64,000 nt of DNA, taken from positions 40,656-104,655 of the IMG/VR virus record IMGVR_UViG_3300032236_000548, one strand, 5' to 3'. A program made the translations under genes and the position numbers. The notes beneath the pieces are model-generated. The model did not search any database and had not been told where the DNA came from. It worked only from the letters and a program-made list of their open reading frames with translations. The DNA is from a virus. Position 1 is the first letter of the stretch; each line of letters opens with the position of its first letter. Below, piece by piece: positions 37,010 through 40,891 of this stretch.

Positions 37010-37732
37010 ATGAGTTTACGTGCGGATGATTTAAGAGACCTAGTCAAAAAAGTTTTTGAGATAGATAGCTATCAAAGCAAACTAGGCAATGACGCAGATG
37101 TTTGTGTACTAAGTTTCACTGTTGACGAACAAGATCCTGCTAAGGATTTAGAAAACTTTATTGAAATGGGTTATGCATTTGTGCTTGATGCAGATGTGAC
37201 TCCCGGAGAATTAGACGACGGGAAGTATAGAGTCTATGTTGAATTAGAACGCACACGTCACTTACCTGAACAAATTTCTGAAATCATTGAAGGTGTTAAA
37301 AAAGTATCAGGCTTAGAAGATATGCGTTTCAGATATTTTAAAAGTTTCAAAAGCATTCCAGCTACTGAAGAAAATTTAAGATTATCTGTTCCAAAGAATA
37401 AAAACGAATACGAAGAAATTACTCAAAGAAATAAGCTAGACAATTTTAGCAACTTCTTTAGCAATAGTTATGCAGACAGTTTAGATGTAATGGAAGAAAG
37501 CATTACATTTAAAAGACCATACAGTGGTCCTGTCTCATTTAATATCTTAGATAGCGGTAGTAAACGTGATATCTATGATAGCATTAAGGGTCCTATCTTT
37601 TTAGAAAGCAAGGACATGGCCGAAGTAATGTTCCTAACTAAAATTATTGGTAACTATAACATTACTAAAATTGGCAATAAATTTATATTTGAAAACAGCG
37701 GCTGGGCCGTTGCACTTGAAAGGAAAGCATAA
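37010..37732 (+). CDS. hypothetical protein
   Basis: Start MSLRADDL at 37010 after an AAGGA RBS; coupled to the endolysin gene. Confidence 0.72.
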   Translation: MSLRADDLRDLVKKVFEIDSYQSKLGNDADVCVLSFTVDEQDPAKDLENFIEMGYAFVLDADVTPGELDDGKYRVYVELERTRHLPEQISEIIEGVKKVSGLEDMRFRYFKSFKSIPATEENLRLSVPKNKNEYEEITQRNKLDNFSNFFSNSYADSLDVMEESITFKRPYSGPVSFNILDSGSKRDIYDSIKGPIFLESKDMAEVMFLTKIIGNYNITKIGNKFIFENSGWAVALERKA

Positions 37733-38364
37733 TGGCATCGGAATTTACATTTAATTTTACAGCAGACAAGTTAGCGGCTTGTTTACCAGGTAATCAATAC
37801 ATTGAACACTGGCACGAAGCATTATCAAAAATTCTTCCTGATTATGATATCAATACTCCGCAACGTGTTGGTGCATTTCTAGCACAAACAGCACACGAGT
37901 CTGGCGGATACAAAGCTCTTAAAGAGAACTTGAACTATCGTGCAGAAACATTGATGAAAGTTTGGCCACGATATTTCCCTAGCATGGATGTTGCTAATCA
38001 ATACGCACACAATCAAGAAGCTATTGCAAACCGTGCATACGCTAATCGTATGGGCAACGGTGACGAGGCAAGCGGTGACGGTTTCCGTTATTGCGGTCGT
38101 GGACTTATTCAGTTGACTGGTAAGTCTAATTATCAACGTTTTGCAGAAAGTATTGAAACACCAGTAGAAGAAATTCCAGATTTCTTAGCTACATTTGAAG
38201 GTGCAATCCAATCAGCTTGCTGGTTCTGGGAAACAAATAACCTAAATGATTTTGCAGATACCGGAGACATTTTAACAATGACTAAGCGTATCAACGGTGG
38301 CACTTTAGGATTAGCAGAACGTCAACAGCACTATCAACACTTCATGCAAATTCTTCAGAGTTAA
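37732..38364 (+). CDS. endolysin, glycoside hydrolase family 19 (chitinase-like)
   Basis: FLAQTAHESGG, ENLNY, YANRMGNG, RGLIQLTG..NY, TKRINGG. Confidence 0.88.
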   Translation: MASEFTFNFTADKLAACLPGNQYIEHWHEALSKILPDYDINTPQRVGAFLAQTAHESGGYKALKENLNYRAETLMKVWPRYFPSMDVANQYAHNQEAIANRAYANRMGNGDEASGDGFRYCGRGLIQLTGKSNYQRFAESIETPVEEIPDFLATFEGAIQSACWFWETNNLNDFADTGDILTMTKRINGGTLGLAERQQHYQHFMQILQS

Positions 38365-38366
38365 TC

Positions 38367-38837
38367 ATGGGACAGATAGAGTGGATGCTTAGTATAATAC
38401 CTGATGCGGTATTAAACTGGTTTTACTGGGGTGTTATTGCTTTAGGGTTTTCTGGACTTGTAGCCGGATGGTTAGGCAAGTGGATTCCAGTGTACGGAAA
38501 GTATGCTCAGTTTCTAAAACCTATTGGTATTGCATTACTTGTAGTAGGTGTGTGGTTGCGCGGCGGCTACGATACAGAAATGGCATGGAGAGCTAAGGTC
38601 AAAGAGGCGCAAGCCAAAGTAGCCAAGGCAGAAGAAGCCAGCAAAGATGCTAATGCAAAACTAACAGAAGAACGCGGTAAAAAAGCTAAAGTTAGAACAG
38701 AATACATTACTACTGTTAAAGAGCGTATTGTAAAAGATACACAAATTATCGATGCAGAATGTAAGGTTGCTCCTGAAGCAATTAAAGATCTTAACGATGC
38801 CGCAATTAATCCTACTAAAAAGGAGGTTGCAAAATGA
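38367..38837 (+). CDS. probable i-spanin (Rz-like)
   Basis: N-terminal TM segments, then a coiled coil with a late Cys; lies between the endolysin and a lipoprotein. Confidence 0.7.
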   Translation: MGQIEWMLSIIPDAVLNWFYWGVIALGFSGLVAGWLGKWIPVYGKYAQFLKPIGIALLVVGVWLRGGYDTEMAWRAKVKEAQAKVAKAEEASKDANAKLTEERGKKAKVRTEYITTVKERIVKDTQIIDAECKVAPEAIKDLNDAAINPTKKEVAK

Positions 38838-39097
38838 ACCGACTTATATTAATAGGCGTGTTGTTACTGTCAGGGTGTGCATCATCTGTTCCAGTAGCAA
38901 TGAAATTCCCTGAAGTTCCAGCAGACATGCTAGTAGCTTGCCCTGATTTAAAATTAGCGCCGGATACTACTAAATTAAGCGAAGTACTTCCAGTTGTAGC
39001 GGACAACTATGGGCAATATTATAGCTGTAAAGACAACACAGACAGCTGGATAGAATGGTATAATACCCAAAAGAAGATATTTGACAGCGTGAAATAA
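38834..39097 (+). CDS. probable o-spanin lipoprotein (Rz1-like)
   Basis: Lipobox LLSG|C, Pro-rich linker, two further Cys. Confidence 0.75.
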   Translation: MNRLILIGVLLLSGCASSVPVAMKFPEVPADMLVACPDLKLAPDTTKLSEVLPVVADNYGQYYSCKDNTDSWIEWYNTQKKIFDSVK

Positions 39098-39128
39098 ATA
39101 CGTATATAACAGCCAAAAGGAGCGAACT

Positions 39129-39737
39129 ATGGAAAAAGATAGCGATTGGATGCAAAAACTATGGCGTCCAGCAATGGGATGGATGTACATGTTAATCTGT
39201 CTACTAGACATGGCAGTATTCCCAGTACTATGGTCATTGTTACAAGCAATGACACACATGCCGATTACACAATGGAATCCACTAACCTTACAAGGTGCAG
39301 GTTTATTCCATATTGCAATGGGCGCAGTTTTAGGTATTGCGGCTTTTGGTCGTACACAAGAAAAATTAGCAGGTACTGCCGCTAACCCAACTGCTACATC
39401 ACAAATAACAACTACCAATACTAACATGAGCGGTGTTCCAGCTGGCATGTCAGGCGGCTTTGGTGGTGCACCAAGTTTTGGAGGAGCAAGCAATGGCGGA
39501 TTCGGCGGTAACAACTCATCATTCGGCGGGGCTCCAACATTTGGCGCTCCTGCGGCAGGAGGCTTCGGTGCTTCCAGCGGTGGTTTTGGGGCAACAACAT
39601 CTCCAGCACCAGCCGCAAGTGGCTTTGGCGGAAGCGGGTTTGGAGGCGCACCTACAACAGGTTTCGGTTCAACAACGCCAGCAGTAAACGCAAAAGGTCT
39701 AAAGGTTATTCCCCAAGACCCAGATCCAGTTCTATAA
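39129..39737 (+). CDS. holin-like protein (GTA 3TM-type) with FG-repeat tail
   Basis: WRPAMGWMY, TM segments, LG...FGRT.EK; in the lysis cassette with its own TAAATA (39095-39100). Confidence 0.7.
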   Translation: MEKDSDWMQKLWRPAMGWMYMLICLLDMAVFPVLWSLLQAMTHMPITQWNPLTLQGAGLFHIAMGAVLGIAAFGRTQEKLAGTAANPTATSQITTTNTNMSGVPAGMSGGFGGAPSFGGASNGGFGGNNSSFGGAPTFGAPAAGGFGASSGGFGATTSPAPAASGFGGSGFGGAPTTGFGSTTPAVNAKGLKVIPQDPDPVL

Positions 39738-39747
39738 GGAAAATATT

Positions 39748-39942
39748 ATGAAAAAGTTTCTAGTTGCATTAAACATTGTAATTTGGTCAATTGTATGTGT
39801 TGAATTAGCACATGCAGAGCCTGCTAAAAAACCAGTAGCAGAAAAGAAGGCGCCAGCTAAGAAAGAAGTTAAAAAACATCAAAAATTCGAAGGCACAAAA
39901 GTAGAAGGTACTAAACCAGATACTCCAGCTAAGAAGAAGTAA
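39748..39942 (+). CDS. small secreted Lys-rich protein
   Basis: Signal peptide ending in AHA, basic mature part, AAGGA RBS. Confidence 0.65.
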   Translation: MKKFLVALNIVIWSIVCVELAHAEPAKKPVAEKKAPAKKEVKKHQKFEGTKVEGTKPDTPAKKK

Positions 39943-39955
39943 TTAAGTCAAAAAC

Positions 39956-39984
39956 TTGACTGGCTCCTTATAAGATAGTATAAT
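39956..39984 (+). promoter_or_regulatory. sigma70-type promoter for dnaJ-def-clpA
   Basis: TTGACT, 17 bp, TATAAT. Confidence 0.75.
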
Positions 39985-40015: not shown

Positions 40016-40891
40016 ATGACTGATTATTACCAAACACTAGGTGTTAGCGAAACAGCTAGCCCAGACGAAATTAAAAAAGCCTACAGAAAATTGGCTAATC
40101 AGCATCATCCAGACAAGGGTGGAGACCAAGCCAAATTTAAAGATATTTCTGTAGCATACGATACACTGAGCGATGCTAACAAAAAAGCCGAATACGATCA
40201 ACAACGTATGTATGGCAATAGCACACACTCATTCCATTCGGGAGGCGGATTTGATCCGTTTAGCGGAATGTTCGGTGGCGGTGGAAGTCCGTTCCCGCAA
40301 GGTCATCCTTTCAACGACATCTTTAGAGGTATGGGACGCGGTGCTGGGCAGATGAGAAAGAACAGAGACTTGAATATACAATGTACTATCTCATTTATAG
40401 ATTCTTATCAAGGTAAACAACTAGAAGCAAACTACAGATTACCAAGTGGTAAAAATCAAACTGTAGTTATTAATGTTCCAGCTGGTATATTGCACGGAGA
40501 TACAATTAAGTATCAAGGGTTAGGTGACGATAGTGTTCCTAACATACAGCGTGGTGATCTTAATGTAACTATTCTAGTTCAGCCTGATCCTAAATTTGCC
40601 CGTAACGGGGACGACTTATATACAACTATCTTTATTAATCCAATAGAAGCTATGATTGGTTGTAGGAAAACAATACAAACAATTTCTGGCGGGACAATGG
40701 ATTTAGATATTCGTGCAGGAGTCGAGCATGGTGTCGAGTTTGCTAGCAATGGTAACGGATTTACTAATGTAAACACTGGGCGCAAAGGACGATTTGTTAC
40801 TGTAGTTCATATTAGAACTCCAGCAATTAACGATCCAGCAATAGTAGCAAGACTGAGAGACATTAATGCCGACATTAGTAACCTTCCCTAA
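40016..40891 (+). CDS. dnaJ: DnaJ/CbpA-class J-domain co-chaperone (no Zn finger)
   Basis: DYYQTLGV, HPDK, G/F-rich linker, C-terminal GDL...F.R.GDDLY domain. Confidence 0.92.
   Translation: MTDYYQTLGVSETASPDEIKKAYRKLANQHHPDKGGDQAKFKDISVAYDTLSDANKKAEYDQQRMYGNSTHSFHSGGGFDPFSGMFGGGGSPFPQGHPFNDIFRGMGRGAGQMRKNRDLNIQCTISFIDSYQGKQLEANYRLPSGKNQTVVINVPAGILHGDTIKYQGLGDDSVPNIQRGDLNVTILVQPDPKFARNGDDLYTTIFINPIEAMIGCRKTIQTISGGTMDLDIRAGVEHGVEFASNGNGFTNVNTGRKGRFVTVVHIRTPAINDPAIVARLRDINADISNLP

Follow-up and report, generated by a model that had tools for sequence, protein, structure and literature searches.

A holin-type protein with an FG-repeat tail and a conserved end peptide in the lysis cassette of a putative jumbo phage

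We describe a holin-type gene found in a viral DNA stretch of 64,000 nucleotides (positions 40,656 to 104,655 of the IMG/VR record IMGVR_UViG_3300032236_000548; hereafter the window), whose product carries, behind a two-helix membrane core, a long uncharged tail that is punctuated by phenylalanine–glycine (FG) dipeptides and closed by a conserved peptide. The record is a 104.6-kb fragment estimated to represent 28% of its genome, and the phage, from freshwater, is therefore estimated to be a jumbo phage of roughly 370 kb. We propose, with a probability of about 0.5, that the protein is the holin of a jumbo-phage lysis cassette and that its tail is a portable, selected cytoplasmic FG/peptide module that tunes holin clustering and the timing of lysis. 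This module would comprise the 123 C-terminal residues of the protein, i.e. a charge-free spacer, some ten evenly spaced FG 'stickers' set in G/S/A/T/P spacers, and the end peptide (coordinates are given in Table 1).

The FG tail, its end peptide and their distribution

A charge-free tail with ten FG dipeptides behind a membrane domain had been reported in an earlier note on this DNA, and we confirmed its presence. Residues 80–188 (109 aa) contain no D, E, K or R: past the helices, charges are restricted to the GRTQEK segment and to the last 14 residues, and the C-terminus is hydrophilic even though 109 consecutive residues are uncharged. The array proper (residues 106–186, 81 aa) consists of G28, A13, S11, F10, P7, T7, N3, M1 and V1. 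All ten tail phenylalanines precede a glycine (GGFGG, SFGG, TFGA, GFGA, GFGS), and none of 100,000 shuffled versions of the tail reached ten FG or seven GFG. The distance from one phenylalanine to the next ranges from 5 to 13 residues, with a coefficient of variation that was equalled in 18 of 20,000 shuffles, which makes the spacing more regular than 99.9% of them. Tandem Repeats Finder found no DNA tandem repeat in the array, which rules out such a repeat as its origin, and the ten FG pairs are encoded by six different codon pairs; the FG pattern is therefore kept at the protein level.

The reading frame is real, since in over 100 homologues the tail, though variable in length, is followed in frame by a conserved C-terminal peptide. 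For the same reason we regard the alternative-frame open reading frames (ORFs) that overlap the tail (39433–39687 on the + strand, 39421–39651 and 38975–39514 on the − strand) as by-products of its composition. A scan of the window revealed no other ORF that is FG-rich or ends in the peptide motif. When searched alone against Pfam, the tail matched no family at E ≤ 10, Nucleoporin_FG (PF13634) included; a search of the ESM Atlas with the tail returned only matches to unrelated disordered models with TM-scores below 0.4, and the FG region alone retrieved only members of its own family from a set of 5.8 billion proteins. Literature searches on FG-repeat or low-complexity holin tails found nothing relevant.

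The earlier note had also called for a comparison of tail presence and phenylalanine spacing across homologues, and would have counted a tail that is absent or not F-conserved in close homologues as evidence against its reading; this comparison came out in favour of a selected feature. The FG tail is kept in hundreds of relatives. The closest 90%-identity clusters all have it (120/120), with 6–13 FG, essentially no Tyr or Trp, and 1–6 charged tail residues, nearly all of which lie at the very end. In a set of 66 distinct homologues taken from viral contigs, conservation within the tail is highest for F (0.85) and G (0.79), compared with S (0.37), A (0.44) and T (within 0.37–0.44); 465 of the 551 tail phenylalanines precede a glycine, compared with a glycine content of 24%, and the median FG-to-FG distance in the family is 8. 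The tail thus corresponds to the description of a cohesive FG domain: it is predicted to be disordered, is depleted of charge and rich in FG, and its phenylalanines are conserved while the spacers drift.

The tail ends in the window with KGLKVIPQDPDPVL, and the family pattern of this end peptide is [GS][KR]-x1-4-P-x1-7-P-x-[LIVM]-COOH (core form G-K-x-x-P...P-x-[L/I]-COOH). P195 and P200 are invariant in the 66 close homologues. The pattern closes 28 of 78 tail-bearing representative 50%-identity clusters, whatever the composition of the linker. The end peptide most likely docks a cytoplasmic factor. A complex prediction that paired the C-terminal domain of the phage DnaJ (105–291) with the tail end (150–202) gave a score of 0.00, i.e. 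no answer, which speaks neither for nor against binding.

The two elements are also found on other anchors and in other positions. An FG array lies at the N-terminus, ahead of the same hairpin, in 6 of 150 representative clusters and in a large sister clade of jumbo phages (median of 5 FG in 39 distinct proteins). The members of this clade (loci L084–L163, e.g. L084:4001-4684) share a conserved N-terminal motif of about 45 residues, MATLLAKKSGPQDNAIATDDEHHEALA.DP.VSAFPQGS.FG, with the FG array behind it, and a conserved motif ahead of the membrane segment, GGAM.EG...V..D.DATDWINKKWRP; these two motifs may be equivalent to the docking peptide of the C-terminal tails. In a T4-like myophage (L057:3995-4702, on an IMG/VR contig of 46,972 bp), a core that is 82% identical carries an FG tail that has abductin-like GGMGGGFGGQQ repeats and ends in another peptide, ..HPSDPQTRNTRNDL. 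The gene sits between tail-tube-like and baseplate-hub genes, with gp48, gp4 and gp2 homologues nearby, and looks like the product of horizontal transfer between unrelated phage types.

A second, very large family, which we call famB, bears the same tail on an unrelated membrane domain. Its member P0303 (L174:1453-2031) is a two-helix protein with seven FG repeats and the same end peptide, encoded just upstream of a core gene; further examples are P0318 (L186:4001-4579) and the 80 loci L186–L265. A BLASTP comparison of P0303 with the neighbouring core protein, P0304, aligned only the C-terminal peptide, the membrane domains not being homologous. Consistently, famB has no Pfam match, PF11351 (the family of the core, see below) included, and matches phrog_25359 (function not assigned) through its membrane part only. 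The end-peptide pattern closes 117 of 120 famB proteins, and 517 of the 739 famB tail phenylalanines precede a glycine. famB genes take up the same slot as the core gene (order endolysin, spanins, famB, (core), dnaJ), with or without a core gene in tandem; they are absent from the window and from its 104.6-kb record. The mean FG count in tandem loci is 3.6 for famB and 0.4 for the core, whose tail is short there, both proteins keeping the end peptide; cores without famB have a mean of 6.6 FG, a contrast between tandem and solo loci that may partly reflect shared ancestry. famB may be an alternative holin or an antiholin. Taken together, the FG array and the end peptide probably constitute a portable cytoplasmic module used by different membrane anchors of lysis cassettes. 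The end peptide, the existence of famB with the same tail and slot, and the independent tail-less cassettes described below appear to be new.

The membrane core and the holin assignment

The core runs from an N-terminal WMQKLWRP through a first transmembrane (TM) segment (~15–38), a loop with the invariant TQWNPLTLQ and a second TM segment (~56–73) to GRTQEK. It matches PF11351 (GTA_holin_3TM) with 26.6 bits for a curated cutoff of 24.8 (E = 9.6e-6), although the match is barely above the cutoff and spans only profile positions 62–122 of 123 (residues 4–75). PF11351 is also matched individually by 71 of 78 aligned relatives (E ≤ 0.001). The full-length architecture of that family (~123 positions, nominally three TM segments) is not found here: two helices are predicted, and the N-terminal half of the profile is absent, many relatives having non-TM extensions in its place. 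An AlphaFold2 (AF2) model built from 78 sequences places helices at residues 5–42 and 58–80 with a predicted local distance difference test score (pLDDT) of about 80; the pLDDT stays below 50 over residues 82–179 and rises to 66–71 in the last 20 residues.

Both ends of the protein, and hence the tail, are predicted to be cytoplasmic (an N-in/C-in hairpin with a short periplasmic loop), because Lys and Arg follow a positive-inside pattern (on average 3.4 ahead of the first helix, 0.46 between the two and 2.8 behind the second, over 128 representatives) and because the N-terminal extensions of 60–150 aa found in relatives contain no TM segment. The core is under stronger constraint than the tail, with rough dN/dS values of 0.09 and 0.45, respectively; it is 80–93% identical among relatives, and D27 and H61 are invariant. 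A lambda-like dual start at M1/M8 was considered and rejected: M8 is conserved, but it lies within the WMQK.WRP motif and lacks a ribosome-binding site of its own.

The window contains an ordered lysis cassette in which the holin-type gene starts 32 nt past the stop codon of the outer spanin gene. The N-terminus of the GH19 (glycoside hydrolase 19) endolysin is not hydrophobic and has neither a signal sequence nor a signal-arrest-release (SAR) sequence; this soluble enzyme therefore needs a hole-forming holin, and the holin-type protein is the only further membrane protein of the cassette that could release it. Endolysin and/or spanin genes lie within 4 kb upstream in 65 of 80 related IMG/VR loci, including loci in which the spanins precede the endolysin, and five of the remaining 15 loci end too near upstream for a verdict.

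A holin role is further supported by tail-less homologues, retrieved by a scan of one genome per prokaryotic species, because they hold the holin position in unrelated cassettes. A prophage of the isolate Bradyrhizobium sp. dw_78 encodes, in this order, a GH25 endolysin, a tail-less core of 99 aa (46% identity, PF11351 23.6 bits, phrog_3427), an Rz-like spanin and a lipoprotein with an overlapping gene. Similarly, two Oligoflexia metagenome-assembled genome (MAG) contigs encode an M15-like peptidase, the core, a TM/coiled-coil protein and a lipoprotein. In SAR11 phages, PF11351 proteins are encoded beside a lysozyme or an M15 peptidase (preprint 10.1101/672428), and ICP1 TeaA, which has been placed in PF11351 by remote homology, has holin activity (PMC7182436). 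The earlier description of the protein as holin-like is thus well supported by the family match, the cassette-end position and the tail-less homologues, and we consider it quite probable that the protein is a holin, or at least belongs to the holin/antiholin class.

Possible action of the tail and competing explanations

The tail could act as follows. Late in infection, the holin-type protein would accumulate in the inner membrane, where weak multivalent FG–FG contacts, formed between adjacent tails or with those of a partner membrane protein, would make the two-dimensional clustering that leads to hole formation more cooperative. A cytoplasmic factor would bind to the end peptide, which would tune the moment of lysis together with the FG array. 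Charge-depleted FG domains are indeed cohesive, and the removal of one residue from the spacer lowers their saturation concentration 3- to 5-fold (PMC9918544).

Several observations weigh against this proposal. First, a Nup98-type repeat contributes only ~0.2 kJ/mol, and free chains of 26 repeats demix at ~300 uM (PMC9579204), which suggests that ten GFG-type repeats devoid of Leu are weak stickers, too few to demix as free chains. Since ten repeats are too few in free solution, the tails could act only if concentrated at the membrane or multiplied by oligomers. By our own estimate, based on lambda figures, a few thousand holins in a submembrane layer of ~10 nm would amount to tens of micromolar tails and near-millimolar FG. 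TM-driven oligomers would multiply the valence of the tails, and a weak cohesion of this size would suit a sharp critical-density switch. Clustering by tail cohesion is plausible in principle.

Second, the tail is not uniform. A phmmer search with the core alone against 1.84 billion representatives retrieved 916 clusters. In this wider family the tail may be FG-rich, Tyr-rich, charged, S/T/P-rich with a few scattered phenylalanines, or missing; the end peptide persists even though many tails are not FG-rich. FG is, on this evidence, optional for the general function, and FG richness is best read as a selected feature of some lineages and not of the whole family. Note that the core tree (73 columns, 142 representatives) lacks resolution: it requires 12 changes of FG status, but its well-supported branches do not force more than one FG origin, and multiple independent gains can therefore not be claimed from it. 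The N- or C-terminal placement of the FG array and famB are better evidence than this tree. A homologue in the cultured 469-kb Sinorhizobium phage Phosso (L001:2968-3492) has a Gln/Tyr/Pro-rich, prion-like tail in place of FG, and could serve in the laboratory as a model for low-complexity tails borne by this core.

Third, some data bear on the holin assignment itself. In addition to the partial PF11351 match, an hhalign comparison of the core alignment with ICP1 ORF135–139, the TeaA-like ORF137 included, revealed no similarity, and these same five ICP1 proteins had no Pfam match; TeaA therefore provides no anchor for direct homology. In the N-terminal-FG clade, the gene lies downstream of a virion structural gene and ahead of dnaJ–clpA with no lysis gene adjacent, the endolysin being encoded ~10 kb away in four of five complete genomes (335–525 kb) and 42 kb away in the fifth. 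Finally, a tail-less homologue in phage PA5oct is annotated as a virion 'structural protein' on the basis of mass spectrometry, and other loci hold famB or DUF4337 proteins that could be the true holin.

Possibly, the tail is just a flexible and perhaps elastic tether without FG self-association that keeps the end peptide some way off the membrane. The functional part would be this peptide, to which a regulator, the endolysin or a host factor would dock, and an FG-rich sequence would be only one among several linker compositions that serve. This would account for the persistence of the end peptide whatever the linker in the representative clusters and in nearly all famB proteins, for the tandem loci in which both proteins keep the peptide and one the FG, for an AF2 confidence that rises only at the end peptide, and for the abductin-like repeats of the T4-like variant. 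The small number of repeats by Nup98 thermodynamics is in line with it, and a linker ending in a C-terminal peptide is an established design for SSB and FtsZ. However, a pure spacer needs neither conserved nor evenly spaced phenylalanines, and F and the next G are precisely the most conserved residues of the tail. In addition, FG arrays are kept in T4-like loci, where the end peptide differs, and at the N-terminus, where the C-terminal peptide is absent, and the docking partner remains a postulate.

At the other end of the range, we tentatively consider a 'lysis-clock', in which membrane-tethered tails, alone or with famB tails, would condense sharply in two dimensions as their concentration rises, and thereby define the holin density at which triggering occurs. 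Lysis time would be dialled in evolution through repeat number and spacer length, and a regulator or the endolysin would be drawn into the condensate by the end peptide. If true, this would be a case of phase separation used as a viral timer, convergent with the FG chemistry of the nuclear pore.

It is doubtful that the protein is not the hole-former but an antiholin or lysis regulator, or else a late inner-membrane protein (an assembly or virion-associated anchor) that merely neighbours the lysis genes. The PA5oct homologue, detected in virions by electrospray ionization tandem mass spectrometry (ESI-MS/MS) and encoded among structural and adhesin genes, points in this direction, as do the Atu_ph07 homologue near a tail-fibre gene, the T4-like copy within a structural module and the N-terminal-FG clade, in which the gene lies after a virion structural gene and at least 10 kb from the endolysin. 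The conservation of the core, with its invariant D27 and H61, is also unusual for a holin. However, membrane proteins often contaminate virion preparations, and placement in a late structural module is normal for holin genes (T4 t is a late gene). The holin assignment is favoured by membership of a Pfam/PHROG holin family, by the contiguity of core and endolysin in three independent cassettes (GH19, GH25 and M15-like) and by the lack of any other candidate in the window cassette to release the soluble endolysin.

It is unlikely that the FG tail is a client of, or recruits, the phage DnaJ (which has a G/F region) and ClpA, and thereby places holin stability and timing under chaperone/protease control. 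A dnaJ–(def)–clpA unit does lie immediately downstream in the C-terminal-FG clade, in the N-terminal-FG clade and in famB loci, and J-domain proteins handle FG domains in eukaryotes, as DNAJB6 does with FG-Nups. However, dnaJ has its own near-consensus promoter and hence belongs to a separate transcription unit, T4-like loci encode FG tails without an adjacent dnaJ or clpA, and the shared gene order may be simple inherited synteny.

Lastly, the earlier suggestion of a nucleoporin-like selective plug, made of FG tails that would line or fill the holin lesion, is very unlikely: the uncharged, cohesive-type composition would allow it, and FG phases formed in vitro become denser and tighter when the spacers are shorter (PMC9918544), but the tail has no Nucleoporin_FG match, there is no transport-receptor analogue, the tails are predicted on the cytoplasmic face and not in the lumen, and complete lysis cassettes exist with tail-less homologues or, in tandem loci, with a core devoid of FG. 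Holin lesions are, moreover, terminal and non-selective in all studied systems. Indeed, an end peptide and a tail shared with the unrelated famB point to a tethered docking or regulatory module, not to a pore filter.

The locus, related systems and implications

The features of the locus are listed in Table 1.

Table 1. Features of the holin-type gene and of its surroundings (window coordinates)
Feature	Position	Strand	Basis
Soluble endolysin, GH19	37732..38364	+	PF00182 6.6e-10; phrog_181 endolysin 3.9e-78
Inner-membrane spanin (i-spanin, Rz-like), two N-terminal hydrophobic segments then coiled coil	38367..38837	+	phrog_1327, phrog_312
Outer-membrane spanin (o-spanin) lipoprotein (LysC/Rz1-like), lipobox LLSGC	38834..39097	+	PF23793 LysC 27.4 bits (cutoff 27); phrog_456
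TAAATA motif, holin ATG 34 nt downstream; candidate late-promoter element	39095..39100	+	sequence
Shine–Dalgarno AAGGAG, 6 nt ahead of ATG	39117..39122	+	direct sequence reading
Holin-type gene, 202 aa + stop	39129..39737	+	PF11351 26.6 bits; phrog_3427 holin
Membrane core, residues 1–79	39129..39365	+	hydropathy, AF2, charge counts
Charge-free T/N/S/A-rich spacer, residues 80–105	39366..39443	+	composition; AF2 pLDDT below 50
FG-repeat array, residues 106–186, 10 FG	39444..39686	+	composition, conservation; predicted disordered
C-terminal peptide N-A-K-G-L-K-V-I-P-Q-D-P-D-P-V-L-COOH	39687..39734	+	conservation
Small protein, 64 aa, signal-peptide-like start (AHA/EP cleavage-like), Lys/Ala/Pro/Glu-rich body	39748..39942	+	sequence
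Near-consensus sigma-70-type promoter TTGACT-17-TATAAT before dnaJ	39956..39984	+	11/12 positions match

The TAAATA motif occurs 19 times on the + strand of the window; nine of these copies are found no more than 60 nt ahead of an ORF start, compared with 1.1 expected at random positions, mostly at a distance of 24–36 nt (e.g. 36410, 39095 and 48434). It is compatible with a T4-like late promoter core, which we take as a mere hint of late transcription. The sigma-70-type promoter sets the lysis genes apart from the DnaJ–Def–ClpA unit. The 64-aa protein has no Pfam or PHROG match; its gene is found directly behind the holin gene in ~20 of the 80 related loci as well, and it could be a secreted cationic accessory protein, possibly associated with lysis.

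The hydrophobic segments of the i-spanin (~residues 17–37 and 50–64) lie ahead of its Rz-like coiled coil, the PHROG match beginning only at residue 49; the same two-segment layout is found in the spanin of the Bradyrhizobium prophage (L180:4268-4747). In many related loci, a DUF4337 (PF14235) membrane protein of 187–196 aa is encoded directly upstream of the holin-type gene within the cassette (e.g. L012:3391-3951, L073:3360-3941 and many of L004–L083), which suggests a lysis role for a family without assigned function. The nearest homologues in binned genomes (L171–L176) come mostly from freshwater Bacteroidota MAGs (Haliscomenobacter twice, Lishizhenia, Crocinitomicaceae, Chitinophagales and Bacteroidales). 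The host group may therefore be Bacteroidota, a weak lead given that phage contigs are often mis-binned.

The protein resembles the described members of PF11351 (the RcGTA holin rcc00556, ICP1 TeaA by remote homology, and the GTA-holin family of TCDB) in its WRP..GW motif, its two C-terminal helices ending in G-R-x-x-E-K, its small size and the position of its gene beside the endolysin. It differs from them by the lack of the usual N-terminal soluble or helical part and by the 123-aa FG tail with its end peptide, which they lack. A two-helix hairpin with both ends in the cytoplasm is also typical of class II holins such as S21 68. The sequences are unrelated, and S21 68, a pinholin, is paired with a SAR endolysin and not with a soluble one as in this cassette. 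In terms of function, the nearest counterparts of the protein would be these two-helix holins and holins with cytoplasmic domains that are regulatory (lambda S tail, T4 T/RIII). The lambda holin S105 likewise has a cytoplasmic C-terminal tail, which tunes lysis timing. However, known regulatory holin tails are ~10–20 aa long and highly charged, whereas this one has 123 aa and is uncharged save for its last 14 residues.

With the FG domains of the Nup98/Nup100/Nup116 type and of Nup62/54/58, the tail shares (predicted) disorder, a near absence of charge, FG dipeptides in G/S/T/A/P/N spacers and the conservation of F over spacers. In contrast, it has ~10 repeats instead of ~40–50, a spacing of ~8 instead of ~12 or more, and GFG/SFG/TFG units without Leu; it is anchored at a bacterial inner membrane, and no transport receptors are present. 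The likeness to nucleoporins is, in our reading, one of convergent composition and not of homology. Evenly spaced aromatic residues in Gly/Ser-rich spacers and GGFGG units also recall hnRNPA1-type glycine-rich low-complexity domains and abductin elastomers, from which the tail differs by its use of Phe only (Tyr being essentially absent), its much shorter length, its membrane tether and its conserved terminal peptide.

In its overall layout (anchor, variable low-complexity linker and short conserved C-terminal peptide) the protein is reminiscent of SSB and FtsZ, except that the peptide is G-K-x-x-P...P-x-L and the anchor a membrane hairpin. Finally, holin soluble domains bind regulators in T4 T with RI/RIII and in ICP1 TeaA/ArrA, where another small membrane protein is encoded next to the holin, and the tandems of famB and core resemble such pairs. 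They are not homologous to T, RI, RIII or ArrA, and here the two membrane proteins share a tail module, which, to our knowledge, has not been described for any holin/antiholin pair.

What sets the firing time of a holin is a long-standing question, for which models invoke a critical two-dimensional concentration, and we know of no sequence element identified as setting this concentration. The present family is a natural, abundant and modular candidate for such a timing element, with thousands of sequences in freshwater viromes. Because countable repeats occur on either end of one core and on a second, unrelated core, tests by changes in repeat number, F-to-S substitutions and tail swaps would be direct. 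The putative partner of the end peptide may be a new lysis regulator. Even if the tail were merely a tether, the family would still illustrate cleanly how modules are shuffled between lysis proteins. More generally, the module extends to phage membrane proteins a cohesive FG-type low-complexity chemistry that has so far been a hallmark of the eukaryotic nuclear pore.

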